From Candidatus Bathyarchaeota archaeon (GTDB lineage: Archaea > Thermoproteota > Bathyarchaeia > 40CM-2-53-6), in NCBI GenBank assembly GCA_963835925.1, contig CAWIHH010000004.1:505289-569288 (forward strand): DNA of 64,000 bases, read 5' to 3'. This document shows, in pieces, positions 5,277 to 52,485 of the stretch (position 1 is its first letter; each line of letters starts with the position of its first letter). A program made the position numbers and the translations under genes. Below the pieces are notes generated by a model. The model was not told the origin of the DNA. It searched no databases and saw only the letters and a program-made list of their open reading frames with translations.

Positions 5277-5520
5277 CGCCTTGTCGAAAAGAAAAGTGAA
5301 GATTGATGTTTCTATGCCCGTATTGTCTTCCGCTCCATGCCTATTGGTTATGGTTTGCCGAAAGAGTCAAGAGTTCTTAGCATTTACAGTATGAAGTAAG
5401 TCCATCAGTACATACAAATGCCAAATCCAATTTCAAGCTTCGTATTGACTCAATACTGGAGTGGAGAAGGGTCCACACCAATGAGTTGAACAGAAGCGTT
5501 CTCCGCCTAGAATAGTAACT

Positions 5521-5582
5521 GCAAAGAAAGGAAATAAATGAAAAAGGGAAAGTTTTCTGTGGTCAGGTTCGTATTTTTTGTT
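5521..5582 (-). terminator. Oligo-T (minus strand) tract downstream of C2, a probable archaeal terminator
   Basis: The plus strand is purine-rich (gaaaggaaataaatgaaaaagggaaag ... tattttttg), giving T-runs on the transcript. Similar GAAAAA..GGAAAG blocks follow C3, B4 and C7. Confidence 0.4.
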
Positions 5583-6678
5583 TTAGGTTTTCTTGGTTGC
5601 GGTTGTTAGTTTGGTTGTTGGGATGATTTTCGCAGCGACCACGTAGGCGGCGACTAGGATTACGAAGAAGACGCCTACCACCATGTAATCGAAGCCTTGT
5701 GGAATCATGGCTGGGAAATAGGTTTGAGGAGTCAAATCAGCCGCCTCAGGAACGCCCACAGAGACCACCAGGTACCGCACCAGCAGTCCGCCCGTTAATA
5801 GTAGGAGGCTGCTGATGGCTGCGAGCAACGGAAGCCTGCCACCATTCTTCACACCCAACCCTAGCAGAGCTATGGGAAGTATGAGACCTGCAACAATCAA
5901 ACCACCCCAGAACAACACCGAGAACGAACCCGACGTCAGGAGCATTCTAGATTCTAGTGCTGAAGGCACCATACCAGCCGTCACAGTGTAAAAGAACAAC
6001 ACAGCCAACACGAAGACACCAAGCGCAAGCAAAGGCGCAACCAAACTTCTGATCATACCAGTTACCTGTTCATTCGCTTCACCAACACTACGCGCCTGGT
6101 AGACTCCGAGAACCATCACCGTCGCGGCAGTGCCCGTCATCAAAGCCACACCAATGAACAGCAACGGAAGCAACCCATTCTCCCAGAATGGGACATGGGC
6201 AAGACTCATGGCAACGCCTGGGTAGGTCATGACGCCAAGCGCTAGCACTGCACCGATGATCCCCAGCGCCCTTCGAAGCACAGTAGCCTTCTCTAATAGT
6301 TTGAACGGCCAAATCCACAACCCAATGTGTACCACTGACACGACCAAGAATGCTGTGATGAACACTGAACCAATCGCAATTAGGGAACCGAAGTTGCCGA
6401 AGACAGACATGAACCGTTCCGGACGCCCAAGATCCAACATCAGAAACAGCACGCCCCCAATCACCAGAGGAGCGCTAAGGAAGACACCGACCTTCGACGT
6501 GATCCTATTCCTCTCACCAAGATAGTCAGCTAAGACGCCTACAATGTACGCTCCGGCTCCAGCTCCGGCTAGGAAGAAGTCCCAGATCAGCAACCAACCC
6601 CACTCAGTCTGAACAGGAATCATGTTCTACAACTCCCCCTTGAAACCCACATAGTACACTGAAGGCCTCGTGCCAAGC
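5573..6678. repeat. Copy 1 of a ~1.1-kb apparently identical segmental duplication (C2 gene plus the 3' tail of B2)
   Basis: Same sequence as 11374-12479 at a constant offset of 5801 nt. The 346-aa proteins and the antisense shadow ORFs are identical. Confidence 0.85.
5583..6623 (-). CDS. NrfD/PsrC-type membrane anchor subunit C2
   Basis: 346 aa and multi-TM, with N-terminal WGWLLIWDFFLAGAGAGAY as in NrfD-family quinol-interacting anchors. It lies directly downstream of A2-B2. Confidence 0.85.
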   Translation of the reverse strand: MIPVQTEWGWLLIWDFFLAGAGAGAYIVGVLADYLGERNRITSKVGVFLSAPLVIGGVLFLMLDLGRPERFMSVFGNFGSLIAIGSVFITAFLVVSVVHIGLWIWPFKLLEKATVLRRALGIIGAVLALGVMTYPGVAMSLAHVPFWENGLLPLLFIGVALMTGTAATVMVLGVYQARSVGEANEQVTGMIRSLVAPLLALGVFVLAVLFFYTVTAGMVPSALESRMLLTSGSFSVLFWGGLIVAGLILPIALLGLGVKNGGRLPLLAAISSLLLLTGGLLVRYLVVSVGVPEAADLTPQTYFPAMIPQGFDYMVVGVFFVILVAAYVVAAKIIPTTKLTTATKKT

Positions 6679-7280
6679 GCCGGCTTCAACGGCATCGCCC
6701 GCAGTTTGATGATCTCCTGTGAGATTTGACTATTCGGATCATCCAGATCACCGAAAACCCGCGCACGTCCTAGGCAAGTGTTCACGCAGGATGGGGTCGC
6801 GTCCCGGTCCACACCGGGTTTAAGGCCGTTCTTCACGCCCGCATCAACACGTTGAACACAGAACGTACACTTCTCCACGACGCCTACTTGGTGTTGCGCG
6901 TATGCTCGGTTCTCCCAAGCCGTTAGGCCTGATGGATAATAGCCCTCAATGCTAGCCATGAAGTGACGTGCTGCGTATGGACATGCTTGCATGCAATACT
7001 TGCATCCGATGCACTTGTCATAGTCCACCAGCACAATCCCGTCAGCCCGCTTGTGACTCGCACCTGTTGGGCAGACCGCGACGCATGGCGCATTCTCACA
7101 GTGCATACACAACGTCGGAATATAGAACCTCCCGGTGTTGGGGTACTTTCCGGTCTCACCTTCAATTGCTGCAGCCCAAAATATGCCTTTAGTAGTCTTG
7201 TTCTCAGCTTTGCAGGCGGATGTGCACCCATAGCATCCGATGCAACGGGACAGTTTAATCAACATGCCATAATGTGTCAT
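6627..7280 (-). CDS. Four-cluster [4Fe-4S] ferredoxin subunit B2 (PsrB/DmsB-like)
   Basis: Cys groups are CIGCYGCTSAC, CMHCENAPCVAVCP, CIGCKYCMQACP and CTFC..CVNTC. Confidence 0.9.
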   Translation of the reverse strand: MTHYGMLIKLSRCIGCYGCTSACKAENKTTKGIFWAAAIEGETGKYPNTGRFYIPTLCMHCENAPCVAVCPTGASHKRADGIVLVDYDKCIGCKYCMQACPYAARHFMASIEGYYPSGLTAWENRAYAQHQVGVVEKCTFCVQRVDAGVKNGLKPGVDRDATPSCVNTCLGRARVFGDLDDPNSQISQEIIKLRAMPLKPALGTRPSVYYVGFKGEL

Positions 7281-7290
7281 TGCATCTCAC

Positions 7291-10030
7291 CTAAGCCTTG
7301 TATACCCTCACTTTGACATCGTTCTCAAGCGCGTCGGTGAGCTTGTCAGTGTATTCAAGCTTGTCAGGCCTCATGGCTTGGTGTGGAAGTCCAAGATGTC
7401 TATTGTTGAGGTCCTTGACTACAGAGTTTCCAGCCCAGCGGCCGAAGTGACGACTTACCGCGATAACCTTTGGGTGAATCGCCTGTGAAAGCTTCGCATA
7501 TCCTTGGCGCTTGTCTTGCTCTGACTCAACCCAGATGAGGTCTCCATTCGTGATTCCTTTGTTCTTCGCTGTGTTGTCGTTCATCCAAACGTACAGTCCG
7601 TACGGATCAAGCTTCTCCCCTATATCAGCAAGCCATGGGATGACCTCTGTGCACATGTAGCCACCAGTGTTCTGCAGGTAGGCGATCTCGATCAGATCGT
7701 AAGGCGGGGTGTCCGTGTGGATGTGGCTTGGGATCCATGTCGGAAGTGTGGCGTAATCCGCATAATCCCAGGCCACACCGTTCTTCTCCAATGTCTGCCG
7801 CAACTGGTCGGCGACTCGCTTGTGCACCTCCACGTAAATCGGTAGCCGCTGCTTCTTGGTCTTATACCACTCATACACAGCATCGCAGCTTGTCTTGTCT
7901 GCTGCACTCACGCCTCCGTTCTGCTTCCACCAGTCTAGACCTTTGCCGTTGGTGCTCTTGCAGATCGTGCTCGAAGATTTGCTCGGTTGTGTACTTCGTG
8001 TTCAAGTCCAGTTTATAGGGGTCTTTGAGGCTGCCGTTAGCCAAGTCGTTGAAGCCACCTTTACCGTATAGAACACCTGTCCTGTCGCATATTTCGACAA
8101 AGACATCGTAAATGTGCGGTATTGGGTTGAGCGGCTCGACGACCGGCTGCTCCAACCAGTTGTTGAGTTGATATTCTTCTAGGTAGCATCTGTCAGGTAG
8201 AACTATGTCTGCAAGGTCGGTGGGTTCCTCAAGCCAGATGCATGACAGAGCGAGGAACGGGACTGTGCTTAGGACCTCGGCCATCGTGCTGACGGCGTAC
8301 ATGGATAACATGCCGTAGGCATGGCCGAAACCGAATTCGATGCGGTGCGCTTTCCCAACGTTCCAGTAGTCGTTGGGGTTCGCCATTGTCAAGAGTGACA
8401 GTGCGCCTTTGTGGTCTCCGAATGGGAACAACTCATCCAGTTCGACTGTCTTAGGTGGAAAAACATTGTTCCATGTTTTTTCTCGTGTTACACTGTAGGC
8501 AGCCGCTGGATGGGGAATCAGGCCGTCCTGAGTGGTCTTCCACTGAACATCCGCCTGAGGATTCGTCGCATATGTCGGTAGATAGGAATTTGGCATCATA
8601 CAGCTAGATCCAGGTGTGTCCCACGCGCCCACGATCGTAAGCAGCATCATTATGCTCCATGAGTTGGCAAATCCATGCACATGGTTTGATGGGTTTGACC
8701 CAAAACTCGCTGCCACAGGCCTGTAGGCGCGTTCGACGCCGTTAACGATTATCGTGCTTCCTATTTGAGCCGCTTGAGCCCACTCGTTCGCTATGCGGCG
8801 TATGGTTGCTGCGGGCACGGTGGTTATGGGCGCAGCCCATTCCGGCGTCATGGGTTTGACCGAGTCTTTCAGAAGTTGCCACGATGGACTTGTGTTCACG
8901 CCACCAACTGTGAAGCTGCCCTCAATCGCATAGTCCTTGATTGTCTTATCATCGAATGTCTTAGCCTTATTATCAACTGGATCCCAAACTAGTGGTTTGT
9001 TGGTCACAGTATCTCGGGCGTAGTAGCCGTTGTCAGCTCGGACAAGGTAGGGGCCGTCTGTCCACTTCTTTATGAAATCCACGTCATAGATACCAAGCTC
9101 ATGAATGAGCACGTTTAGCATTCCCGACGCGAAGGCCCCGTCGGTCGCGGGATGGATGGGGACCCATTCGTCAACGATGTTCCCCCCATACGATCGGTTG
9201 GGAGTTAATACAACATTCCTGGCGCCCTTGTCGTGTGCGTTTGCCAATAGTTCACCGAACGCGATAGAGTCATAGACGAAACCGTTCTCCCTTCCGAAGA
9301 TGATCTGGTATTTGTTGTGTAGGTAGTCGGTGTTGCCAACAAATCCGCCATGCGCCACCCTATGGATATAGTGTAGGATGTGGCCGCACCAGTTCATCCC
9401 CATGTCTACTGAATAGCAATTCCCCGTCATGGCGGTGTTGAAAGCTGACCGAAGTGAACTCTGGCTGTAGTTCATTCGCCCAGCGGTGTTGAACCACACC
9501 GTGCCGTCTTTGCCTTTTGCCATGACCTTCTTTGCTTGTTCAGCGATAGTGTTGTATGCTTCGTCCCAGCTGATCTCAACCCATTTCGGATCAACGCCAA
9601 TCCCTTTCTGCGGATTCGTCCTCTTCACTGGAGTCTTGACTCGGTAAGGATCGTAAACGTAAAAGTGCCCTGCACTCCCTCGAGCACAGAGCTTTCCATT
9701 GGTCGCGGACGGACTTCCAGTACTCATCGACGGGTCTCCGTCAATCTTGTCGATGATTCCGTTCACAACGTGGACTTGTATGCAATCAAGCGTCGAGCAG
9801 ACTCTGCACATGCTTTTGATCCATTGGTCCTGTTGAGCTGCTGTGGGGGTTGCTCCAGCCACCAGCACCTTCAACGGTTCGTTCAGCGCAAAGTCAGTGA
9901 CTGCTGCGACTGTTCCAAAAGTTGCTGATAATTTTAGAAAGTCTCTTCTGGAAATTGATGCTTTATCTCGCTCCGAATTCCTACTGACTATCTCTTGTTT
10001 AGACAATTTCTTATTTCCTATTCCTATCAT
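7291..10030 (-). pseudogene. CISM catalytic subunit A2 (Psr/Phs-like, Tat signal), split by a 1-nt indel near 7960
   Basis: ORFs 7871-10030 and 7291-7911 overlap. The upstream frame reads ..TTEQIFEHDL. After one orphan base, the downstream frame reads KSTNGKGLDWWKQNGG.. and matches A4. It has an SRRDFLKL signal and a CRVCSTLDC..KLC motif. The start may be the TTG at 10006. Confidence 0.85.
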
Positions 10031-10245
10031 GTTTGTTGCCCGCTCTAAACTCCATTAAGCCCTCCACAGCCTTCACTCAAGACGGCTTCACAGAGCTGCA
10101 ACAAGCAACACAAAGGAACGGACTCGCAGAGAATAAGTTCCTTTGCCACATATTCTATTCACTAAGACTGCCCAACAATAGGTCTACGTGTTGTAATTAC
10201 ACCGCGATGTTACCGTTCAGTAACATATATACCGCATCAACAACG
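10031..10245 (-). promoter_or_regulatory. Conserved upstream/leader region of A2, paralogous to 1655-1870, with a perfect 9-bp inverted repeat CAAAGGAAC-N17-GTTCCTTTG
   Basis: Alignment by eye with the A1 upstream region. A TATATAT box lies about 195 nt upstream of the ATG. Confidence 0.5.
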
Positions 10246-10293
10246 GAAATCGTATCAAAGCCAGTCTAGAAGCTGCATTTACGAATGCACCGT

Positions 10294-11028
10294 TCACCCA
10301 ACAGGCAGATGTAGGTTGCTCTCGGCCAACTTGATGTACGAGCTGACATTTTCCGCTTCGAGCGAAAGGAAGCCTTTCGTGAATCGAGCAACACCTCGAT
10401 AGAAATCAGTGCGTGCATCTTGAAGGACGGCATCACAGAATTTTGGAACCCATTGGGACAAGTGTTCAAGAAGAAAAGCCTCCTCTGATCGGAGGCACTT
10501 GATAGCGTCTATGTGGTTAGATTTCTTCCATAATTCCGTCTCATTCTCAGTCAAGTGCCTCATGAAGTCAAGCTCAACTCCGACGTAGTCAACTCGTTGT
10601 CCGGCCTTTTCGTCCATACCTACTCCTGCCTCTCTGTATATCTTCATCACATCTCCAATACCCTGTCTCGAATCCTGACCCGACCCCTCCTTGTAGACAG
10701 ACTCGTAGGGTGGAGGAGGCCCATAGCCACGTTTCAATCCTCGGAAAAGCCTTGTCCATTCTACAGCGAGTTCTTCTGCCAGCTTGTTTCGCGGACGATC
10801 CTTCGTTTCTTCTACGAATCTTTCCATCGTCCTCAGTCCTTCCTTCATCTCGCTAGAGACTTCATCAGACGCGGCTATTGACCTAAGTGACAGAAACTTT
10901 TCTCCGAGAAGGGTTGTAGCAAACTCATTGTTTGGAATTCGAACGTAGAGCGCACTCAAGAAGCCATATAATTTGCTTCTAGATTGAGCGAGTTGGCCAA
11001 ATTCGTCCGCAGAGATTGAGTCATCCAT
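10294..11028 (-). CDS. TorD/DmsD-family redox-enzyme maturation chaperone 1
   Basis: 244 aa with the motifs EWTRLFRGLKRGYGPPPPYESVY and DYVGVELDFMRHL, typical of TorD-like chaperones. Confidence 0.8.
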   Translation of the reverse strand: MDDSISADEFGQLAQSRSKLYGFLSALYVRIPNNEFATTLLGEKFLSLRSIAASDEVSSEMKEGLRTMERFVEETKDRPRNKLAEELAVEWTRLFRGLKRGYGPPPPYESVYKEGSGQDSRQGIGDVMKIYREAGVGMDEKAGQRVDYVGVELDFMRHLTENETELWKKSNHIDAIKCLRSEEAFLLEHLSQWVPKFCDAVLQDARTDFYRGVARFTKGFLSLEAENVSSYIKLAESNLHLPVG

Positions 11029-11334: not shown

Positions 11335-11383
11335 AAAAAGAAGAACAGAAAAAGTGGAAAGAAAGGTTAATGTTTTTTTTGTT
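11335..11383 (-). terminator. Oligo-T tract downstream of C3
   Basis: Plus strand reads aaaaaaagaagaacagaaaaagtggaaagaaagg..tgttttttttg. Confidence 0.4.
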
Positions 11384-12424
11384 TTAGGTTTTCTTGGTTG
11401 CGGTTGTTAGTTTGGTTGTTGGGATGATTTTCGCAGCGACCACGTAGGCGGCGACTAGGATTACGAAGAAGACGCCTACCACCATGTAATCGAAGCCTTG
11501 TGGAATCATGGCTGGGAAATAGGTTTGAGGAGTCAAATCAGCCGCCTCAGGAACGCCCACAGAGACCACCAGGTACCGCACCAGCAGTCCGCCCGTTAAT
11601 AGTAGGAGGCTGCTGATGGCTGCGAGCAACGGAAGCCTGCCACCATTCTTCACACCCAACCCTAGCAGAGCTATGGGAAGTATGAGACCTGCAACAATCA
11701 AACCACCCCAGAACAACACCGAGAACGAACCCGACGTCAGGAGCATTCTAGATTCTAGTGCTGAAGGCACCATACCAGCCGTCACAGTGTAAAAGAACAA
11801 CACAGCCAACACGAAGACACCAAGCGCAAGCAAAGGCGCAACCAAACTTCTGATCATACCAGTTACCTGTTCATTCGCTTCACCAACACTACGCGCCTGG
11901 TAGACTCCGAGAACCATCACCGTCGCGGCAGTGCCCGTCATCAAAGCCACACCAATGAACAGCAACGGAAGCAACCCATTCTCCCAGAATGGGACATGGG
12001 CAAGACTCATGGCAACGCCTGGGTAGGTCATGACGCCAAGCGCTAGCACTGCACCGATGATCCCCAGCGCCCTTCGAAGCACAGTAGCCTTCTCTAATAG
12101 TTTGAACGGCCAAATCCACAACCCAATGTGTACCACTGACACGACCAAGAATGCTGTGATGAACACTGAACCAATCGCAATTAGGGAACCGAAGTTGCCG
12201 AAGACAGACATGAACCGTTCCGGACGCCCAAGATCCAACATCAGAAACAGCACGCCCCCAATCACCAGAGGAGCGCTAAGGAAGACACCGACCTTCGACG
12301 TGATCCTATTCCTCTCACCAAGATAGTCAGCTAAGACGCCTACAATGTACGCTCCGGCTCCAGCTCCGGCTAGGAAGAAGTCCCAGATCAGCAACCAACC
12401 CCACTCAGTCTGAACAGGAATCAT
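11384..12424 (-). CDS. NrfD/PsrC-type membrane anchor subunit C3, identical to C2
   Basis: The 346-aa translation is identical to that of 5583-6623. Confidence 0.85.
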   Translation of the reverse strand: MIPVQTEWGWLLIWDFFLAGAGAGAYIVGVLADYLGERNRITSKVGVFLSAPLVIGGVLFLMLDLGRPERFMSVFGNFGSLIAIGSVFITAFLVVSVVHIGLWIWPFKLLEKATVLRRALGIIGAVLALGVMTYPGVAMSLAHVPFWENGLLPLLFIGVALMTGTAATVMVLGVYQARSVGEANEQVTGMIRSLVAPLLALGVFVLAVLFFYTVTAGMVPSALESRMLLTSGSFSVLFWGGLIVAGLILPIALLGLGVKNGGRLPLLAAISSLLLLTGGLLVRYLVVSVGVPEAADLTPQTYFPAMIPQGFDYMVVGVFFVILVAAYVVAAKIIPTTKLTTATKKT

Positions 12425-12426
12425 GT

Positions 12427-12479
12427 TCTACAACTCCCCCTTGAAACCCACATAGTACACTGAAGGCCTCGTGCCAAGC
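12427..12479 (-). pseudogene. Orphan 3' tail of a B2-type ferredoxin gene, carried along with the duplicated C gene
   Basis: The sequence equals 6626-6678 (..LGTRPSVYYVGFKGEL stop) but has no upstream B2 body. The genuine B3 gene ends at 12510. Confidence 0.65.
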
Positions 12480-13167: not shown

Positions 13168-15830
13168 CTATGCCTTGTACACCTTCACCTTGATGGCGTT
13201 CTCGAGGTTTGCGACCTGCTTGTCGCAGTAGTCGAAGCCCCAGGGGCGCAGCCGCATGTACTGGACGCCAAGGTGCTGCAGATTGTAACTCTTCACGACC
13301 TCATTCACCGCGTAGCCTCCTGGGTTTATGCAAATCCCCACAGCCTTCGGGTGTATACCCTGGGAGAGTTTAGCTATTCCTTGCACCTTGTCTTGGACTG
13401 ATTCCACCCAGAGAAGGTCTCCGTCGCTTATGCCCTTCGCTTTCGCCGTGTTTTCATTCATCCATAGGTAGAATGTATAGGGGTCTGTCTCTTGTGCTTC
13501 CATTAAGTAGGGAAGCGCCCGAGAATTTGTGGCCGAGAATCCGATCTTTCGATACGGCGCTGTTATGAGGTCGTACGGTGGCGTATCTTTGTGTATGAAG
13601 CTTGGGATCCAGCGCGGTAGCGGATCGTAGCTGGCGTAATCCCATTGAATACCTGCTTTGTCCATGTTCACCTTCAACGCATCTCCAACTTCCTTTTGCC
13701 ACTCCATGTAGATTGGAAGTCTGACCCCGAGCGTTTTGTACGGCTGGTACTGTGCCATCATATCCTCGGGCCCCTGTACGCCCCCGTTTTGCATTGCCCA
13801 TTGGAGATCCTTGCCAGTGATGGACGCGGCTATGTGACTTACAACATCCTTTGAGGTATACTTCGTATTGAGATCGAGTTTCTGATCTGCGGTCGGTATC
13901 TGTCCATTCAACCTGTCGTTGAGGCCACCCTTGCCGTAAAGGAAACCGGTTCTATCAGCGATTTCTATGTAGTTGTCGAGCACGTTAGGCAGGTTGTAGA
14001 GTGGGGTTACGACTGGCTGCGTGATCCATCCCTTCACTTCGATGCCAAGGTCGTAGCTCTGCATTGCAAACTGCCAGCCCTCGTGCATCGTGCTTTCGGG
14101 AATTATAATGTCCGAGTAAAGACCAGTCTCATCAATCAGATCGCTTATGGAGATTATGGTCATAGTGGCGTAAAGTTCCTCCAAGTCACTGGATGCGTAA
14201 TTCATGATAAGCGGGTTCGCCTTTCGCAAGAAGACAAGATCAGCCTTTTGGCCTCCGTAGTACTTGTCGGGGTGTGCCATCTTCAAGGAAGGAATCCAAG
14301 TCGTGCAAAACCCAATCGGAAAGAATTCACTGAGATCATTTGACGTGGGAGGATACACCCAAGGCGTCGCGGTCGGTGTAAGCGGGGCGTTTAGACCGTC
14401 AATCCATTTATTGAAGTTCCTGCCTCCGATTGCTGCGTTTTTACAATACCAGGCTCCGGGAACGCTTTGTGCACCTACAAGAGTAGGTAAGAGGTTCAAG
14501 GGCATACCCATGCTCTGGATTGCGGAAAGGTGACCTGACCCACTTCCAGCTCCGTGCGCAATAACGACTGGTCGGTATGGCAATACCACACCATTTATTG
14601 TAACGGTGCTTCCTATGCTGGCGGTATTACCCCACTCCGTTGCTAACCGTCGAATATCTTGAGCTGAAGCACCGGTAACGGTAGCAGCCCATTCTGGCGT
14701 GTACCCCTCCGTCCTAATTCGGTCCTTTAGGAGAGCAAACGCGGGGCTACACGGCTTGCCAGCCACTGTGTATGTTCCTTCCAGCGCATAGTCCTTGACC
14801 GCCTTGTCGTCATAGGTCTTAGCAACCTTGTCGACCGCATCCCAGACCATGGGCTTCTTCGTTGTCGGATCTCTCACGTAGTACCCATCGCTGCTGCCAA
14901 TGAGGTACGGTGCGTTCGTCCATTGCTTAAGGAACTGAGCATCATAAACTCCCTGTTCAAGAAGCAGAACGTAGACCATTCCAAGCGCTAATGCACCGTC
15001 AGTTGCTGGATGACAAGGAATCCACTCATTAGCCTTTGAAGCAGCAACAGTACCCAGGGGCATAAGGTTAACCACTTTCAGTCCCGCGCGTCTGGCGATC
15101 GCCAGACGACCAGATGACGCGTTTGAATGCGTACTTGTCTCACCTCCCCGGAGTAAGTCGCTTGAATCAAGAGTTTCGTCATATGTTTCGTATCGTAGTC
15201 CATGTCCATGACCCATCCTCCGGACATGGCAACATCGGTGTAATGGCCTGTTTCACACCAACTCATTCCCATGCCAATATTGGTACATGGACCCCTCATT
15301 GCTGAAGAAAACGAGCTACCGAACTGGCTGTTGTGCCCGCTCTGGTTGATGGAGAAAACACCATTTACACCCTTCGCTCGAACCTTCTTAATCATGTCCG
15401 CAACTGTGTTGTAGGCTTCGTCCCAGCTTATCTCAACCCACTTAGGATCTACACCTGGACCCTTCTCCGGGTTGGTTCTCTTCATCGGTGCCTTAACACG
15501 CCAAGGGTCGTAGATTCTCGTTATGCCTGCATTCCCATTTGCACAGATAGGGTGAAATCTTCCCACCTGCCCTCCAGACTCCCAGAGCCCATCGGGGTCG
15601 CCCTCTACCTTAATCGCTACACCGTTGACTCGGTGAACAATTACTTGATCCCATTCCTGACATTGATTACAAGTAGTCTTTATCCACACATCTTCGTTTG
15701 GAACGGGAGCTTGGGCGGCAGCAGACGCCTTTTCGACAAGGCCGTTAATTCCACCGCCAATCAAGAAATTGCTGAGAGTCGCTACAGCACCTGTTGCAGC
15801 GGTCAGTTTTAGAAAGTCACGTCTGTCCAA
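13168..15830 (-). pseudogene. CISM catalytic subunit A3 (Tat signal MDRRDFLKL), frame broken in a short C/G run near 15146-15149
   Basis: ORFs 15078-15830 and 13168-15216 overlap. ..DYDTKHMTKLLIQATYSG joins GETSTHSNASSGRLAIARRAGLKVVNLMP if one G is added. It is colinear with the other A subunits. Confidence 0.85.
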
Positions 15831-18658: not shown

Positions 18659-21431
18659 CTAAGCCTTGTACACCTTCACTTTGACGCAGTTCTCAAGTGT
18701 CGCATTGAGTGTGTCGATGTACTCGAGCTTGTCAGGTCTCAAAGCTTGGTGCGCAAGTCCCAGGTGTCTGTCGCTGAGGCTTTTGGTTACTGAGTTTGCA
18801 GCCCATTTGCCAAAGTGGCGGCTTACCGCGATCACCCTCGGGTGAATTGTTTGCGAAACCTTCGCTCTAGCTTGGTTTTTGCTGTTTTCTGACTCAACCC
18901 AGATTAGATCTCCATTTGCTATTCCCCGAGCCTTCGCCGTGTCCTCGTTGATCCAGACGTAGAGTCCATACGGGTCTAGTTTTTCGCTTATGTCACCGAT
19001 CCATGGGTTAGCCTCAGTGCTCATGAAACCTCCAGTGTTTTGTAGATAGGCAACCTCGACGAGGTCGTATGGCGGTGTGTCAGTGTTGATGTGGCTTGGG
19101 ATCCACTTGGGTAGGGTGAAGTAGTCATCATACTTCCACGTCACCCCGTTCTTCTCGTTGTTCTGCCGCAACTGGTCGGCGATTCGCTTGTGCAACTCCA
19201 CGTACATGGGAAGCCTCAGCTTCCGGTTCTTGTACCACTCCATGACGCCCAAGCTGATTGCCGTCGCAGGTGCGATGCATTGGCCCGAGTTAGCCAGAGC
19301 CGGATCCAATCCCGGAATGGTGGCTATGGGGCCACCGTTTTCCTTCCACCAGTCGAGACCCTTTCCGTTGGTGCTGTAAGAGATCGCGTCGAACATTTGT
19401 TCGGTTGTGTACTTCTTGTTCAGGTCGAGTTTGTACTGGGCGCCGAGGCCGGCGTTGACTAGGTCATTGAAACCACCGGGCCCATATAGGGCGCCTGTCC
19501 TGTCGCATAATTCTACGAAGACGTCGTAAATGTGCGGTATTGGGTTGAGCGGTTCCACGACCGGCTGCTGCAACCAGCCTGCGGTTTGTAGGTACTCTTC
19601 AAGGTAGCATCTATCGGGTAGAATTATGTCTGCAGCGTCTGTGGGTTCCTCCAGGAAGATGCAGGAAAGCGCCACGAATGGAGTTGTGCTCAGAATGTCT
19701 AGAATCGTGTCTATGGCGTACATGGACATGAGGCCGTAGGCGTGGCCGAACGCCGAACTCAATGTGATTTGCGCCAGCCCCCCACAGGTCTTTCGGATTC
19801 GACATTGTCAAAACCGAGACGGCGCCGAGGTGGTCTCCAAAGGGTAGCAACTCCTTGAGTTCCGGCGTCTTAGGTGGAAACGCGTACTTCCATGGCGCGC
19901 GGTGCATAGTGTAGGCTGCGTCCGGATGCGGTATGAGACCGTCCTTGCTGGCCTGCCATGTCAGTTCGGCCGCTCCGCCTACGTAGCCCATCCCTGAAGA
20001 ATAGACTCCTCCGGGTACGTCCAGTCCTCCGATTATCATGGGCAGGAGGTGGGTGCTCCATTCGTTGGCTGATCCATGGACGTGATTTGTCGGGCCTGAG
20101 TGGTAAAAGGTTCCAGCAGGTCTCAGCGGGTAGACTTTTCCTCCGATGGTGACCGTGCTGCCCACCTGGGCTGCTTGGCCGAACTCGTTGGCTATGCGGC
20201 GAATCGTCCCGGCAGGGACGGTGGTTATTGGTGCAGCCCATTCCGGTGTCATCTGCTTGACAGTGTCCTTGAGCAGTTGCCAACCTGGATTCGTGGTTAC
20301 TCCGCCAACTGTGAACGTGCCCTCAATCGCGTAGTCTTTGAATGTTGGATCGTCAAAGGTCTTCGCCTTATTATCGACCGGATCCCAGATCAGAGGCTTG
20401 TTCGTCGCTGCGTCTCGGGCGTAGTAGCCGTTGTCGGCTCTAACAAGGTAGGAGCCGGTCGTCCACTTCTTAATGTAATCCGGATCGTACACGCCCATCT
20501 CGTGGATGAGCACGTTGAGCATCGCAGACGCGAAGGCGCCGTCGGTTGAGGGAAGAATCGGAATCCACTCGTCAATCGTGTTTACGCCAGTCGACATTAC
20601 TGGGTTTACATAGACTATTTTCATACCTCTCTCATGCGCGTTTGTTAGAGGCTCCATCATCGTTATTGCCTCGTTGACAAAGCCCCGTTCGGATCCGAAC
20701 ATTATGACGTAGTTGCCGTATTGGAAATCTGGGCTTTGTTGGAATGCGCCGTGAAGCAACCTTCCGAGGTAGTGCGTAACGTGACCGCACCAGTTCATTC
20801 CCATGTCGACTGAATAGCTGTTGCCGGCCATGGCTTGTTTGAAGGCTGTGTAGAGTGCTCCCTGAGAGTAGCTTGTTCGCGAGTAGTCGTTGAACCACAT
20901 TACGCCGTTGGCTCCTTTTGCTCTGACTTGCTTCGCCTGCGCGGCGATTGTGTTGTAGGCTTCGTCCCAGCTGATCTCAACCCACTTCGGATCTATGCCT
21001 CGACCCTTCTGAGGATTGGTCCTCTTGAGTGGAACCTTGACGCGGTAAGGGTCGTAGACGTACCAGAAACCCGCATGGCCTCTCGCGCACAACTTGCCCC
21101 TGTTTCTCGTATCAGGGAACCCTTCGATCTTGCTGATCATTCCATCTACAACGTGAACGTTGATGTAGTCAATCACCGAACAGATTCTGCACTCGCTCTT
21201 GATCCATTGGTCTTGTGTGGGTGCAGTTACAGATGGCGCTCCTGCTACCAGTGTCTTTATCGGTCCGACTAATGTGAAGTCGCTGAGAGCCGCAACTGCT
21301 CCAAGACTTCCTGAAAGTTTTAGAAAGTCCCTCCTTGAAACTAGATTTTTAATTTCTGAAGTTTTGTTAATGGTTTCACCGATCACTTCTTGCTTCAACT
21401 TTCTACTTCCTTTTCGGTTTGTGCGTAACAA
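18659..21431 (-). pseudogene. CISM catalytic subunit A4 (Psr/Phs-like), with a 1-nt insertion at about 19750
   Basis: ..NHIEFG (g) FGHAYGLMSMY.. is split between ORFs 19611-21431 and 18659-19762. It has an SRRDFLKL signal. The probable start is the TTG at 21398 (KQEVIGE). Confidence 0.85.
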
Positions 21432-42095: not shown

Positions 42096-42347
42096 TCAGA
42101 CGATTTTCTTTTTGAGTTTGGTCTCTAGGATGGCGCGGTTCACTCTTCGCGCCTCAACGGGGTCGTAATGTCTGTAGAAGCGGTCGAGGTCTTCGGTTAT
42201 CTTCTCTTTGCGGTTGATTGAACATTCAGCTCTCCCTAGGTATGCCTTCACCTGCTCAGGGTTCGACAGGTTGGCTTGATGGATGATAGCCTTCAGGGTG
42301 TTAACTGTTCCCCTAATCGTGGAATCTCGATATCCATTTTTCCGCAA
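42096..42347 (-). pseudogene. Short integrase-N-terminal-like (SAM-like domain) ORF, a possible recombinase stub
   Basis: LRKNGYRDSTIRGTVNTLKAI resembles the N-terminal region of the integrase at 51385-52485 (EKQNRSGSYISNCVKPVKSWL). No catalytic domain follows. Confidence 0.3.
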
Positions 42348-42462
42348 GTGGAATGCGAACGCTGCAATTTCGCTGAGGGGGGTGGGTCAGTTGATGGTGG
42401 GGCCGGTGTACAGTTGACTATAAGAACCCAATGACACGCTTACTCAAAACACTAACGGAGAT

Positions 42463-42879
42463 TTGGCATTTAACTCGGATGAAAAATCAGCCTTAGTTGA
42501 TCTTCTTGATTCAGGCGAAAGCCGGAACCTAGCCGCCGCGGTAGCTTCCGACAGTATCCGAGAGGAAAAGAGTTACGATCTCTGCTCTATGCTCGCAACA
42601 ATGTTTTGGACGTATGCCACGCTCCTACTGAAGCATACAAAGATTAATCTAAAGCAGTCGAAGACGCTTCCGAAGTATGCAGCAGAATATCCGCGAATTG
42701 TGGGAGCGATAACAAAGATAGCTAAGGCGGTTCCGAAAGTGTTTGGGACTAGTCTATCAGAGTATGCGGAAACACGCCTCTCTCAGAGAGAGACTCTTAC
42801 AAGTTTGTTTTTCTTTAACGTAAAATTTCGCAATTTTATGGCTAGACGCTCTCCTGACTTCACGGAGAAGCTTCGCTAG
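42463..42879 (+). CDS. Hypothetical protein upstream of cas1 (TTG start)
   Basis: ORF only, with no recognisable motif. Confidence 0.3.
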   Translation: MAFNSDEKSALVDLLDSGESRNLAAAVASDSIREEKSYDLCSMLATMFWTYATLLLKHTKINLKQSKTLPKYAAEYPRIVGAITKIAKAVPKVFGTSLSEYAETRLSQRETLTSLFFFNVKFRNFMARRSPDFTEKLR

Positions 42880-42987
42880 TGCAGCCAACCTGCACCGTCC
42901 ATGACCTACAATTTCTCCAAGCTTTCGAGCGAAATGCCCTCGATAGTACGCGACGTAGAAGAAGGACTCAAAGCCGGGAAGGTTTGA

Positions 42988-44193
42988 TTGGATATGAATC
43001 CGCTTTATCTCTCAGGTTTCAACGTGTCACTCAACGTAGATCGAGCAAGACTCGTTATTCGGGATGGCATTCACGAACCAGACATTGAACCAGAACAACT
43101 TGACGTTCAACCACGCCATGCGCATTTCGACTCAGTCATAATTGACGGACATTCAGGTACGATTAGCCTTGATGCGATCAAGTGGCTAATGCGCCACGGC
43201 ATCCCGCTGTTTGTTCTCGATTATAATGGAACACTCCTATCTTCGACATTGCCAAGGGACCCTGTTAATGGTCCATTGAAAATTGCTCAGATATCAGCCT
43301 ACAATGATCCTGAAACAAGAATGAACATCGCCAAGAAATTCATTGAAGCAAAATCGCAAAGGACAGTAGAAGAGCTCAGCTGGCTATCTGACAAGCACGA
43401 AGATCTAGACACACACGAGGTTGAATCTGAAATCGCACGAATAGCTGAATGCGACAGCTTGCCGAAACTAATGCAAGTTGAGGGGCACATTGCAGACCTG
43501 TACTCGCGACAGTTGCAACGGATTCTCCCACAGAAGCTGGGATTCAATTCAAGAGTGCACGAGTCACGTCAAATGAACGCATCCGACCCAATCAACTGCT
43601 TACTCAACTACGGATACGCGGTTCTAGAATCAGAATGCCGCAAGGCCATTAACAGCGTTGGGCTAGAGTCTACAATTGGTTTTCTGCACGAAGCTCAGCA
43701 ATCCAAGTATCCACTCGTTTATGATCTGCAGGAGCCGTTCAGATGGCTCATCGACATTACTCTGATCGAATGCTTAGAGTACAAACGTTTCAGCAAGAAA
43801 GACTTCTACAGGCTCGACAACTATGTCCTTCGATTGAAACCTGAAACAGCAAAGAAGCTACTAGCCGCGTTACAAATCAAATTCAACTCAACAACCCGCT
43901 ATAGGGGCAAGTTGTACGGTTGGGATACCGTGATGAGGCTGAAATGTCAGGAACTGGCGAGTTACATTCTCGGTAGACGAAGCGAACTCGATTTCGATAA
44001 TCCGCGGCCAGAATTGCCGAGAGACGATTCCGAAGCTGTAAGGAGTAGAATATTGTCCATGTCTTGCGCCGAAGCTAGAGAGCTTGGGATAAGGAAGAAC
44101 ACGCTCTGGTACATGCAACAGCGAGCCCGAACCGGCAAACCCATCAAAATCTACAACCAAGTCAGAAAGAAGCTGCCATGCGCATCTGTCTGA
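42988..44193 (+). CDS. cas1: Stand-alone Cas1-family integrase with a C-terminal HTH (casposase-like architecture)
   Basis: It has GTISLDAIKWLMRHGIPLFVLDYNG, VEGHIADLY, ASDPINCLLNYGYAVLE and GFLHE..LVYDLQEPFRWLID, then a tail AEARELGIRKNTLWYMQQRARTG. The likely ATG is at 42994. Confidence 0.85.
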   Translation: MDMNPLYLSGFNVSLNVDRARLVIRDGIHEPDIEPEQLDVQPRHAHFDSVIIDGHSGTISLDAIKWLMRHGIPLFVLDYNGTLLSSTLPRDPVNGPLKIAQISAYNDPETRMNIAKKFIEAKSQRTVEELSWLSDKHEDLDTHEVESEIARIAECDSLPKLMQVEGHIADLYSRQLQRILPQKLGFNSRVHESRQMNASDPINCLLNYGYAVLESECRKAINSVGLESTIGFLHEAQQSKYPLVYDLQEPFRWLIDITLIECLEYKRFSKKDFYRLDNYVLRLKPETAKKLLAALQIKFNSTTRYRGKLYGWDTVMRLKCQELASYILGRRSELDFDNPRPELPRDDSEAVRSRILSMSCAEARELGIRKNTLWYMQQRARTGKPIKIYNQVRKKLPCASV

Positions 44194-44208
44194 AATAACG
44201 GAATTCTG

Positions 44209-44300
44209 TTGCTCGGTTATGGCCTGGAATCCCGGCCGCCATTTGATCTGTCAGGAATTGATTGGGTGATTATTGGTGGCGAATCAGGATCGAACCGTAG
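44209..44300 (+). pseudogene. Fragment resembling a DUF5131 (phage Gp37/Gp68) family protein
   Basis: LSGIDWVIIGGESG matches the conserved C-terminal-half motif of that family. The rest of the protein is absent. Confidence 0.45.
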
Positions 44301-44401
44301 ACAAGTCAAGGCTGAAACATTTGATTTCTCAAATATGAACGTCAAACACCTCATTTATTCAGTTGCGCTGACCTTTTCTTTCTATGAGTTAGGCGATTTT
44401 T

Positions 44402-47400
44402 GTGAATGTGGGGCAAAGAAGCCGAGTCCGAAAATTCCTCCGCAACACCACAACAATGACAGCTTCCGGGAAAGCGAAACCCAAACGTGGCAGACATACT
44501 CCCCCCTGCTCCGACGTCAGGGCGCAAGCAGATGCAATCGAGCGTCTGGCTTCCTTTCCTGAGCTGAATCCGAACCCAGTCATTGAGGTGGATTCTGCTG
44601 GCAAAATCACCTACCGAAACCCTGCAACCGTTGAGACGCTGATAACGCTAGGCCTAGAGGATAACCCGAAGGCATTCTTGCCCAGAGACATGAACGAGAT
44701 ATTGGATGATCTAAAGCAGAAGAAGAAGAAGAAGAGCGAGTTCTACCGCGAGGTGCGGTTAGGGAATGCAATATTCGGCGAGACTTTTCACTTCACTCCG
44801 GACTACGGTGCTGTGCGCATCTACGCAACCGACATGACCGAACGCAAGAGGGCAGAGGTTGAGCTTCGAAGACAACGAGAAGAACTACAGACCATATTCG
44901 ACTCAGTGCCGGCGATGATATTCCAAGTGGACGGGAAGCATAGGCTTGTCCACGTCAATAGAGCGTACGTTGACGCGGTCGGCTTACCCAAGGAGAAACT
45001 GGAAGGCAAGTCAACCCGTGAGCTCTTCCCTAATCAGGCGAACAGGTATTGGAGAGACGACGAGGAAGTAATGACGTCAGGACGACCGAAAAAAGAGATA
45101 GTTGAGCCGTTCGAGACGCCCACAGGAACAAGATGGGCCCAGACAGACAAGACCCCATACAGAGACGCGACAGGTAATATCACTGGCGTATTGGCGTTTG
45201 CACTCGACATCACCGAACGCAAGCGGGCGGAAGGGAAGCTGCGGGAAAGTGAGCAGCTCTATCGTACTCTGGCCGAGTCATCCCCAGACGATATCATCAT
45301 TGTCAGACGGGACTCCAGTCTCCAGTACATGAATAGAAGCGGATTGAAACACTTTGGACTCACCCTAGAAGAGATAATTGGAAAGAAGGCGTCAGATCTC
45401 TTCCCACCGGAAGCGGCTAAGAGAGTGGGTGTTCCGGTATCAACAGTCCTTCAAACGGATGAACCAATCCATACTGAAGAGGAAGTGTCGTTTCCAGACG
45501 CCGTTTCCTGGAGGGATGAGCATTGGCTCCCCCTAAAAACAGGAAGCGAAACGACTGCTGTTCTCGTAATATCGCGCGACGTCACCGAACGCAAACGCTT
45601 GCTGGACGAGGTGCAGGAGAGAGAGAAGAAGTATCGCACTCTGATAGAGCAGTCGCTGCAAGGAATACTGGTAGCACAGGGGATTCCTCCTCGCTTGGTC
45701 TTCGCTAACCCCGCTATCGCGAAGTTCCTCGGGTATACTCCAGATGAGTTAACATCCCTCTCGCCTAAGCAAGTTGAGGAACTGGTGCACCGTGAAGACC
45801 GCGAGACCTTCTTCAGCCGTTTCAGAGAACGACTGCAAGGCAAACCTGTACTGTCGTCCTACGAGTTCCGCGCTATACGAAAAGGAGGTGAAGTACGCTG
45901 GCTGGAGGTCTCCGCAAATAGGATAGAGTACCAGGGACAGCCAGCCGTGCAAGCAACATTCGTAGACATCACCGAACGCGTCAGGCATGAAACTAGGCTG
46001 CAGACGTTACACGATCACGCGTCGCAACTCGGCTCAGCGAATGACATTGACGCTATCGTCAAGTGCACTCTTGATGCAATGGGGCTTACGCTTGGATTCG
46101 AACACGCCGACTTTCTGTTAGTGGAGAACGCTGCTCTACAAATGAAGGGGAGGAGAGGTCTTCCAGTAGTTTTCTCAGCGCAGCCATTGAATGGGCGCGG
46201 GTTAACAGTCAAAGCCACGAACACGAAATCGACGCTCAGAATATCCGACACCCGAAAAGAACCCGCCTACGTTGACCCTAAAGGGTACGATTGGACTGGA
46301 CCTCCCACCGTGCTTTCGGAACTGATCGTGCCCGTGTTTACATACAGTCAAGTGGTTGCAGTTCTATGTGTTGACAGCACGCGAACAGACAACTTCAACG
46401 ACGATGATCAGAACCTTCTCGAAACATTAGCAACACATGTAGGGGCAGCGCTTGGCCGCCTGAGAGATGTGGAGAGTCTCAGGAAAAGCGAGGCGATGTA
46501 TCGTCGGCTCTTTGAGTCAAGTCAAGAGGGCATAATCATTCTCGACGCGGATACGCTGAGGATCCTTGATTCTAACCCCTTCTTGCAGAGGCTGTCCGGC
46601 CTTTCCCTCGACCAGCTTCTGGGGAGGGAACTCCGGAAAATTGAAGCATTCAACGATGTTAAGGGCCTGATTGATGTGGAGGAGTTGCGGCAGAAGCCTT
46701 TCCTCCGCCTAGAGCCAACTCCCATCGAGGCCAAGGAAAGGGGAAGTGTGGACGTAGAATTCGTCAGCACCGTCTACGAAGCTGACGGTAGAAAAGTGAT
46801 TCAATGCAACATCCGCGATGTCACCGAGCGAACGAAGCTGCAGAAGGAGCTTCAACACCACGTAGAACATTTAGAAGAGGCAGTTCAAGAACGGACTCGA
46901 GAGTTGCGAGATAACGAGGAACGGTATCATCTGCTCGTAGACAATACCGAGACTGGTTTCGTGGTGGTTGATGACAAGGGCATTGTGATTGAAGCGAATG
47001 AGCCCTACTTACGCTTGGTTGGTGCAGGGACCATGAAGGAGATCATCGGTCATTCGGTGATTGAGTGGACTGCGCCTGAGGAAAAAAGTCACAACGCCGA
47101 AGCGGTTGCCTTATGCGCTCGGCAGGGATACATACAAGACCTCGAAACTACCTATCTGCAGAGCAACGGGACGCACGTTCAACCTTCTTATCAACGCTAC
47201 TTTGCAGGAGACATCGAACGGAAAAATGCTCACCGCGCTCTGCCGCAATGTGACTGAGCGTAAACGGCTGGAGAAGATGAGGGACCAGTTCATCTCCACG
47301 GTCACACATGAGCTACGTACTCCCTTAATCTCCATCAAAGGCTACGTGGATCTTACTCTTTCAGCTGAGCCGGGACAGATATCCAAGGAGGTGGAGTCCG

Positions 47401-47966
47401 ACCTGCAAGTGGTTAAACGCAACACGGACCGGCTCCTCAGCTTGGTTAGTGATCTGTTGGATGTTCAGCGGATGCAGGCTGGAAGACTCCAACTGAATTC
47501 TCAACCAACAGACCTCAAGAAAGTTACGGACAGCTGCATTAGAGAGATTAAACCTCTTCTGACGGACAGGCGGCTAAACCTTAGAGTAATAGTTCCAGAA
47601 GGCGAGCTTCTGATTCAAGGAGATGAGGTGAGACTTGCCCAGATCCTTGTGAATCTGCTCAGTAACGCCGCCAAGTACTCTCCCGAAGGCGGAGAAGTGA
47701 ACCTTCGTGTAGAAGAGGAAGACGAAACGGTCAAGGTTTCGATCTCGGACAACGGTATCGGCGTTAGAAAGGAGGATCTGCCGAGAGTTTTTGAGCCGTT
47801 CGCAGCCATCCAAAAACCGTCATACATCAAGGGTACAGGTTTAGGTCTCAGTGTATCAAAAGCCCTAGTTGAAGCTCACGGTGGCAAGATCTGGGCCGAA
47901 TCACAGGGGGAAGGAAAAGGGGCCACGTTCACGTTCACTCTCCCTAAACCCAAGAGGGCAGACTAG
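44402..47966 (+). pseudogene. Multi-PAS/GAF sensor histidine kinase with a 1-nt indel at about 47180
   Basis: PAS ends recur (DMTERKRAE, DITERKRAE, DVTERKRLL, DITERVRHE, DVTERTKLQ, NVTERKRLE). It also has a GAF-like block, the HisKA motif FISTVTHELRTPL, and HATPase motifs NLLSNAAKY, DNGIGV and GTGLGLSV. ORFs 44402-47257 and 47061-47966 overlap. The likely ATG is at 44456. Confidence 0.85.
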
Positions 47967-50984: not shown

Positions 50985-51383
50985 TTGACCGGAGCATCTG
51001 GACAAGATACCTCGAAGGCCCAGGGCCCGGTAAGTGTCATGATTCCACTTTCAGAGCCAGATAAAACAGTCGTTAGAGTCAGAGACTTGATGACTCAAGC
51101 ACTAATTTCTATTGACTTAGAGAGAAACGTTATGGAAGCTGCCAGATTGATGACTGAAAAACATGTGTCTTCCATTCTCGCCTCCCAGAGAGGAAAACTA
51201 TTGGGCATAATCACAGATCACGACATAATCAGCAGAGTTGTAGCGAAAGGACTGAACCCGAACGAAGTTAGCGTTGCTAGAGTGATGAGTTCTCCGCTGA
51301 TAACAGTCAGCGATGAAGAGACAATTGACGAGGCCGCGAAAGGAATGGCTGCCCAGAAAGCAGGCCACGAACTTCCTGCTTGA
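50985..51383 (+). CDS. CBS-domain protein whose second CBS domain appears truncated
   Basis: The first CBS is VRDLMTQALISIDL..LLGIITDHDIISRVV. The second ends at ..AAKGMAAQKAGHELPA stop, missing the usual VV..G.LVGI.T..D strand. Confidence 0.65.
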   Translation: MTGASGQDTSKAQGPVSVMIPLSEPDKTVVRVRDLMTQALISIDLERNVMEAARLMTEKHVSSILASQRGKLLGIITDHDIISRVVAKGLNPNEVSVARVMSSPLITVSDEETIDEAAKGMAAQKAGHELPA

Positions 51384-51384
51384 C

Positions 51385-52485
51385 ATGGTAACTGAACTTG
51401 AAAAACAGAACCGAAGTGGGAGCTACATTTCGAATTGTGTTAAGCCGGTGAAAAGCTGGCTAGAATTCAATGGGATTCAGGTACAGCAGCGGATCAAGAT
51501 CGCTAGACGTGATGAACTCGTAAGGACTGCGGACGAACGGCCACCAACACCCGAAGAGCTGAAACGCATCTTTGACATGGCAGATTTTCGAACACGTGTC
51601 GCCTGCGCACTAGTCGCCTTCAGCGGAGTCAGAATAGAAGTCATAGGTAACTATCTGGGAAAGGATGGGCTTCAGTTACGTGACTTTCCTGAACTCAGCA
51701 TCAAGGACCGCAACGTGGAGTTCTCGAAGATACCCACTCTGATACTTGTTCGGAAGAGCCTTTCCAAAACTAGGAACCAGTTCTTCACATTTCTGAGCGA
51801 AGAAGGTTGTGAATACCTGAAAGAATACTTGGAATTTAGACTGATGACAGAAACGCTAACGCCCAACTCGCCGGTAATCACCCCATCTAAGCATGCCCTT
51901 TCAGGAAAACATATTCGCACAGTGAATGTCAGCGACTTGATCCGAAAACCAATCCGTGCAGCAGCATTCAAATGGAGACCATACGTGCTAAGGAGATACT
52001 TCGACACACGACTGATGATGGCAGAATCTGATGCCCTACTCATCAGAGATTACCGCATTTTCTGGATGGGGCACAAGGGCGACATGGAGCACACTTACAC
52101 GGTAAACAAAGGCCTTTCACAAGATGTAGTGGAGAAGATGCGAGAGTCCTACGCAAAGGCTGCGGCGAAATATCTCCAAACCAAGAAATCCGAAGCTGGC
52201 GAAGACAAGATCAAGGAAGCGGTCAAGAAGCATCTGTTGGAAGTCGTGGGCTTCACTGAGAAAGACTTCGCCAAGCGGGACCTAAACAAGATGTCGAACG
52301 ATGAAATCTTGGACTTGATGAAGCAGAAGTTAACTGGCACTAGTGCGACAGATGGTACGAATGGGTCGAAAAATGGAGCAAAGCAGAAGGTGATCCCCAA
52401 CGGTCAACTGGAACAGTACGTTGAGGGCGGCTGGGAATATGTTGCAACCGCAGGCGAAAAGATCGTAGTAAAAATGCCAGCTTAA
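51385..52485 (+). mobile_element. Tyrosine recombinase / integrase
   Basis: Catalytic elements are FSGVRIEV (Arg), LRRYFDT (Arg) and FWMGHKGDMEHTY (His..Tyr). The ATG at 51385 follows the CBS stop by one base. Confidence 0.8.

Follow-up and report, generated by a model that had tools for sequence, protein, structure and literature searches.

A probable casposon relic with an intact casposase gene in a Candidatus Bathyarchaeota archaeon

Results and discussion

A solitary cas1 gene in a 64 kb stretch of DNA from a Candidatus Bathyarchaeota archaeon (this whole stretch is called the window throughout) probably belongs to a recently truncated and immobile casposon relic, an ordinary transposon remnant. 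Mobile-element fragments make up the locus, which is bordered by an aminotransferase gene on one side and a sensor kinase on the other (Table 1). To account for its present state, we propose that a compact family-2-type casposon of ~5.9 kb, from a clade associated with Bathyarchaeia, inserted here with the original layout PolB(-) HNH(-) HTH(-) X(+) Cas1(+), its Cas1-side end falling at ~44211-44216. A later deletion or rearrangement would have removed the left terminus, the entire replication half (PolB, HNH and the HTH protein) and ~136 codons from the start of gene X, the rest of which would then have gained a TGG>TAG nonsense mutation. The junction lies beside a tyrosine-integrase stub, which suggests that another integrating element may have been involved in the truncation. 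The promoter-proximal part of the remnant's operon would also have been lost, and the casposase ORF is still intact, most likely owing to the recency of the truncation. With a single end and without a polymerase, the remnant should be unable to transpose itself, and it would probably have no current function.

Table 1. Positions, in the window, of the parts of the casposon-derived locus, of its immediate flanks and of the split genes
Feature	Position	Strand	Remarks
Tyrosine recombinase (integrase) N-terminal stub, without catalytic domain	42096..42347	-	83-aa ORF
Left junction or breakpoint region, from integrase stub to truncated gene X	42348..42423		tblastn and blastn start points
Gene X, pseudogene (cluster c25), directly upstream of Cas1	42424..42987	+	~136 N-terminal codons gone; in-frame TAG at 42877-42879
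Casposase gene (family-2-type Cas1 with C-terminal HTH), intact	42994..44193	+	399 aa from the probable ATG start
C-terminal HTH domain of the casposase	43996..44175	+	tblastn with casposon PolB C-termini; aligns to the 6OPM tail
Cas1-proximal terminal segment, apparently retained	44194..44216		homology to intact relatives stops here
DUF5131 (phage Gp37/Gp68-like) gene fragment, abuts the casposon end	44239..44412	+	Pfam PF07505
Five large genes, each split into two overlapping ORFs	1-1654, 7291-10030, 13168-15830, 18659-21431, 44402-47966		four oxidoreductases and a PAS/GAF histidine kinase

The Cas1 protein and its casposase features

As called mechanically, the ORF that carries cas1 occupies 42988..44193 on the plus strand and encodes 401 aa if it is read from the TTG at 42988; the initial annotation had reported this ORF together with a series of Cas1 hallmark motifs, and both the ORF and all of the motifs quoted are found in the translation. 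The true start is probably the first in-frame ATG, at 42994, because the database copy (P0001, 100% identical to the window Cas1) is 399 aa long and the relatives open with MNPLYLSG. The predicted product is beyond doubt a Cas1: Pfam PF01867 (Cas_Cas1) matches the ORF along positions 1-282 of its 283-position profile, with 194.5 bits (E=2.8e-57); TIGR00287, for which the cutoff is 71.7, gives 191 bits; and many of the Cas1 models of PADLOC match as well. All of the 24 diverse family members compared, the window protein among them, share the catalytic residues E163, H232, D244 and E247 (numbered as in the 399-aa protein), and their equivalents in E. coli Cas1 (E141, H208, D218 and D221) were assigned by motif position (VEGH, GFLHE and YDLQEP).

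When all solved structures were searched, the best match was 6OPM, the casposase of Methanosarcina mazei, with 316 bits over residues 4-392, whereas the best CRISPR Cas1 structure, 4N06, scored 109 bits in an alignment that stops at residue 332. Since the alignment to 6OPM extends to residue 392, the C-terminal tail is homologous to that of the M. mazei casposase. The last ~50 aa of the PolBs from 16 casposon loci match positions 43996-44175 of the window (tblastn, best E=2.7e-8), and the HTH of the casposase is homologous to the C-termini of casposon PolBs. According to the comparative literature, a C-terminal HTH fusion is found in every family 2 casposon Cas1 and in no other Cas1, and the C-termini of family 2 PolBs bear a similar HTH (PMC4046053); the casposase HTH is needed for integration in vitro (PMC6977970). 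Every one of the CRISPR subtype-specific Cas1 models scored below its curated cutoff for the ORF, the best being I-B with 130.5 against a cutoff of 304. Because of the match to 6OPM, the subtype models below cutoff and the C-terminal HTH, we assign the window protein, on sequence grounds, to the family-2-type casposases. Both the HTH-like tail of ~60 aa and the equation of Cas1 plus C-terminal HTH with a casposase, as initially annotated, are thereby upheld.

The surroundings of the gene also bear on the class of Cas1 to which it belongs. A PADLOC scan of the 64 called window ORFs detected no other Cas family besides Cas1, and no cas2, cas4 or effector genes; no CRISPR array was detected within the 64 kb by TRF, by a direct-repeat search or by Rfam; and neither Rfam families nor tRNAs were found in the window. 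PolB is absent from the 64 kb, as judged by tblastn with ~90 casposon PolBs and by a Pfam bulk scan. The earlier description of the stretch as lacking PolB, cas2, cas4, effectors and a CRISPR array is therefore confirmed by PADLOC, Pfam, tblastn and repeat searches alike. It is extremely unlikely that the gene is a CRISPR-associated Cas1 of the usual kind, separated from its array and partner cas genes because these are located beyond the window or have decayed. Generic Cas1 models do match the ORF strongly, and the cas search covered the 64 kb window; against this, the casposase score is three times that of any CRISPR Cas1, the subtype-specific models all fall far below their cutoffs, the HTH of family 2 casposases is present, the relatives are embedded in PolB casposons and not in cas operons, and no cas genes (cas2, cas4 or effectors) or repeats occur in the 43 kb that precede Cas1 or in the 20 kb that follow it.

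Relatives in intact casposons

At the level of clusters, over 100 relatives of the window protein share 50-78% identity with it, and the few of these that carry names come mostly from Bathyarchaeia or Thermoproteota. We surveyed the gene context of 158 related loci and of the loci of the two closest relatives that were looked up, with ORFs called mechanically and then clustered. Within the clade of the window protein, every locus that extends at least ~3 kb upstream of Cas1, with the exception of L107, contains a cassette in the order c1-c3-c2-X-Cas1, and the two closest of the relatives looked up (77-78% identity) are found in the same cassette. Its first three genes, a family-B polymerase (c1, ~820-890 aa), an HNH protein (c3, ~150 aa) and an HTH protein (c2, ~180 aa), lie on the minus strand, opposite to Cas1, and the variable gene X (200-325 aa) is placed between c2 and Cas1 on the strand of Cas1 (+). 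The same PolB-HNH-HTH-X-Cas1 order is seen in genomes of Methanosarcina, Methanolobus, Methanococcoides and Nitrosopumilus. Searches of Pfam, NCBIfam and PHROGs with the cassette proteins returned almost nothing. Against PDB, the c1 profile matched family-B DNA polymerases only (best E=3.5e-7) and the c3 profile matched HNH nucleases (McrA, E=3e-5); one c1 member has a weak precomputed match to PF03175, and motifs Exo I-III and polymerase A/B/C are visible in c1 upon inspection. By its gene content, the cassette corresponds to the family 2 core (PMC4046053). None of c1, c2 and c3 was found anywhere in the window by tblastn with 80-90 members of each.

Pairwise DNA homology between related elements that reside in different contexts extends from about the PolB stop to ~21 nt beyond the Cas1 stop, and it is because of this span that we regard the elements of the clade as compact casposons of ~5.9 kb. 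The intact relatives yielded only chance-level pairs in a generic inverted-repeat search of six elements for TIRs, and local alignments of outward ends against outward ends, in 13 elements plus the two closest relatives, stayed at chance level as well. No TSDs were identified in the clade relatives compared, and no tRNA targets were found beside the related elements.

The phylogenetic placement agrees with a casposon origin: in a simple NJ tree, constructed with casposase-type relatives and no CRISPR Cas1 outgroups, the window Cas1 pairs with a protein (P0002) that is located in an intact casposon, and the terminal branch of the window Cas1 is of ordinary length.

Among the Cas1 sequences found, the one most like that of the window (82-86% identity) is a 5'-truncated fragment at positions 3402-4111 of L107 that covers residues 162-399 only, and the genes upstream of it are unrelated. 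L107 is another relic of this casposon lineage, truncated independently of the one in the window.

We found no paper on casposons in Bathyarchaeota in a literature search, so the host range and size of the Bathyarchaeia casposon clade may be under-reported. The clade is an extension of what is known rather than a surprise.

Gene X and the left break

The loss of the partner genes can be followed into the gene that directly precedes cas1. Window positions 42424-42978 align to residues 137-320 of the 325-aa gene X protein of L083 with 55% identity, and the alignment continues through the stop of a 138-aa ORF, this stop lying opposite a Trp of the relative (EKLRWC in L083, EKLR*C in the window), as would be produced by a TGG>TAG nonsense change. 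Because the match to L083 starts at residue 137 and reads through the TAG, gene X must be both 5'-deleted and nonsense-mutated. Homology to casposons begins at 42424-42436, with stop codons in the c25 frame just upstream. On the other side of the junction, the integrase stub is 51% identical to residues 45-116 only of a full-length relative (L079:3-986), in which PF00589 (Phage_integrase) covers residues 126-284.

On L079, only ~3.5 kb separate that full-length integrase gene from a casposon (4466-10655) that is complete and belongs to the clade of the window Cas1, a hint that casposons of this clade and integrases of this type may be found together or use common insertion regions. The window itself has another integrase-family ORF, of full length, at 51313-52485 (+), ~7 kb downstream of Cas1; it encodes 390 aa and has a weak match to PF00589 (E=1.9e-4). 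We considered whether it might be the missing part of the 83-aa stub and rejected the idea, as the two show no similarity.

The right end

At the Cas1 side, blastn homology between the window and the elements L159-L162 stops at 44199-44206. A motif after the stop codon (AATAACGG..AATTCTGTTGCTCG) is common to the window, L159 and L161 and can be recognised up to ~44211-44216, and the mutual homology of L159 and L161 stops ~21 nt after the Cas1 stop. The Cas1-side terminus, of ~20 nt, thus seems to have been kept in the window, as read from homology breakpoints. The DUF5131 fragment just beyond it matches PF07505 with E=8.5e-7 at profile positions 169-222 of 243 only, and it has partial PADLOC matches to PDC-M41B and PDC-M30B. 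The initial annotation had described the flanks as gene stubs and a large signalling kinase, and we do see there fragments of an integrase, of gene X and of DUF5131, together with a PAS/GAF histidine kinase.

The search for a second terminus gave no partner for this end. An inverted-repeat search around the gene retrieved chance-level pairs only and no credible TIR, in line with what had been noted before; TIRs are not recognisable in the intact members of the clade either. The sequence of the Cas1-side terminus recurs nowhere else in the window, and the DNA upstream holds no inverted partner for it, the best score being 23 as compared with a mean of 22.7 and a maximum of 29 for shuffled sequences. 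No TSD is possible at this locus, because the left end is deleted.

These observations also speak to the idea that the locus is a non-autonomous (mini) casposon that has kept both of its ends and depends on the host or on a helper for its mobilisation and replication, which we consider very unlikely. Casposase families without PolB have been proposed (family 5, PMC9755687), and a sister clade described below also lacks PolB. In the window, however, homology to intact elements begins in the middle of gene X and not at a terminus, the upstream region offers no inverted partner to the Cas1-side end, and gene X is a pseudogene. Of the three options that the initial annotation had left for the locus, the relatives in intact elements and the pseudogene X bear out the first, a stripped relic whose integrase has remained intact; a non-autonomous element lacks its second end, and a domesticated Cas1 has no positive support.

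Constraint on the surviving Cas1

Within the relic, cas1 shows no decay of its own. The window Cas1 deviates at none of 37 family-invariant columns and at 3 of 118 clade-conserved columns, where the median for the clade is 4; the one unusual deviation is W171S, a Ser where Trp is clade-invariant. Relative-rate tests against the sister protein in an intact element gave unique changes of 31:29, 25:24, 23:29, 32:29 and 38:22, with no excess. From its sequence the protein looks catalytically competent. The lack of decay in the ORF fits recency of the truncation, and it equally fits continued selection. Most of the measured divergence, nearly all of it, is older than the truncation, and the constraint tests do not show selection after immobilisation.

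A solo casposase might have been kept for its usefulness, either as an integrase that acts in trans on other casposon copies of the genome, complete or non-autonomous, or as an integrase or nuclease recruited (domesticated) by the host. We regard this as unlikely, even though the ORF is intact, has kept every invariant residue as well as the essential HTH, has evolved no faster than its sister from an intact casposon, and belongs to a class of enzymes that act alone in vitro, without Cas2 (PMC6977970). Among 15 billion proteins the window Cas1 remains a singleton, no other copy reaching >=90% identity, and the solo state is exceptional within the clade. The co-transcribed gene upstream and its 5' region have been destroyed, so that the native promoter is probably gone, and the single unusual substitution, W171S, falls at a clade-invariant Trp. 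Nor is the intact ORF statistically surprising: a single disabling point mutation placed at random in the ~1.75 kb remnant would strike the 555-nt gene X fragment, and not the 1200-nt cas1, with a probability of ~0.32. The related proposition that the intact, one-ended casposase gene is now under selection, as a trans-acting integrase for other casposons or, more speculatively, as a Cas1-type integrase captured by the host beside a single terminus, is one to which we give little credence. A recently truncated relic is the reading that we prefer.

The flanking aminotransferase gene offered no empty site for comparison, its nearest orthologs being 70-72% identical, with no shared synteny at this distance.

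Other features of the window

The large PAS/GAF histidine kinase downstream of the locus is split by a frameshift near 47170, which is not at a homopolymer. We had considered this frameshift as a sign of local decay and set it aside, since four other genes of the window are split as well, each into two overlapping ORFs in different frames (Table 1). These split genes could be either real pseudogenes or indel errors of a long-read assembly. The key evidence for the truncation, a large deletion and a base substitution, is independent of assembly indels.

Positions 1-40742 of the window hold a tandem array of about seven paralogous pairs of molybdopterin oxidoreductase and 4Fe-4S ferredoxin genes, along with NrfD-like and chaperone genes, and a 1.1 kb segment of this array is duplicated at 99.9% identity (5571-6678 and 11372-12479). 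The G+C content of the region at 48-60 kb is 0.45-0.49, lower than at the left of the window; because of this and of the second integrase ORF, the region could be another integrated element. In the PADLOC bulk scan, one window ORF weakly matches SduA/DUF4263 (Shedu; E=4.8e-7), and other ORFs have weak matches to PDC-M43B, PD-T4-6, SspA/DndA and CARF.

A sister clade with a different gene set

A sister clade of ~40 casposases, which are 40-45% identical to the window protein, carry the HTH tail and are mostly from Bathyarchaeia, has no PolB/HNH cassette beside Cas1 and is accompanied by a different conserved gene set instead. This set includes a P-loop protein of ~275-315 aa (c7/c12) with the motif PESGKT and weak AAA+/MCM-like matches only, a protein of ~137 aa (c5) with invariant DxD...GxH...DD motifs that are reminiscent of primase-polymerases, and a basic protein of ~130 aa (c6). 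In profile searches c5 had no match, and c7 had weak P-loop matches only. Its gene content suggests that the sister clade may represent casposons that do without PolB and use a different replication module. Its loci in our survey are L013, L014, L017, L023, L027, L028, L067, L068, L075, L108, L112-L114, L119, L121, L124-L126, L133, L136, L142, L149, L155 and L156, with Cas1 at ~10001 in the long loci.

Comparison with known systems

The closest described counterparts of the window locus are the family 2 casposons, represented by MetMaz-C1 of Methanosarcina mazei (PDB 6OPM) and AciBoo-C1 of Aciduliprofundum boonei, with which the window protein has in common the Cas1 fold, the catalytic residues and the C-terminal HTH. 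The five-gene core of family 2 (Cas1, PolB, HNH and two HTH-type proteins) also occurs in the relatives of the window element, whose PolBs likewise bear the HTH at their C-termini (PMC4046053). The window copy differs in that it lacks PolB, HNH, one HTH gene and one end; its host lineage is Bathyarchaeia-like and not from Euryarchaeota; the BLAST identity between the window Cas1 and the casposases of the Methanosarcina group that were compared is ~36-41%; and its intact relatives, at ~5.9 kb, rank among the smallest casposons and have no recognisable TIRs or tRNA targets.

Casposons in decay are known from earlier work, some with amber mutations or fragmented genes, others without TIRs or TSDs, reduced to solo-TIRs or left with a single end (PMC4046053, PMC4779613, PMC9939771), and the window locus adds one more of these to the ones already described. 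MetBur-C1 to C3 of Methanococcoides burtonii and the solo-TIRs of M. mazei are decayed remnants like that of the window, but in these either PolB is still there or a TIR is all that is left, whereas the window retains a casposase gene with one terminus. Cas1-solo group 1 of Methanomicrobiales resembles the window in having a stand-alone cas1 outside any CRISPR context; its members, however, have an incomplete catalytic set and are vertically inherited (PMC4046053), while the window protein has the full set and belongs to the casposase lineage (group 2). The CRISPR Cas1-Cas2 adaptation integrase has a homologous fold and the same catalytic residues; the window, in contrast, has no Cas2 or array, its Cas1 has an extra HTH, and the subtype models score below their cutoffs. 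The proposed PolB-less 'family 5' casposases of hot springs (PMC9755687) have no adjacent PolB either, but they form a separate clade without the HTH, and in the window the loss of PolB is secondary, in a clade that normally has it.

Implications

What follows most directly is a correction of the annotation, from 'CRISPR-associated Cas1' to 'casposase in truncated casposon', and a reminder that finding a solo Cas1 in a MAG is not in itself a sign of a CRISPR system. For specialists on casposons, the large Bathyarchaeia-type clade of compact, family-2-like casposons, found in genomes and metagenomes, may be of more interest than the relic of the window itself. A casposase gene with a solo terminus and without a polymerase resembles, by analogy, the hypothesised first step from a casposon to a CRISPR adaptation module. 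If the solo casposase of the window should be functional, the locus would be a natural case of a casposase with a single terminus, relevant to models in which CRISPR adaptation arose from casposons.
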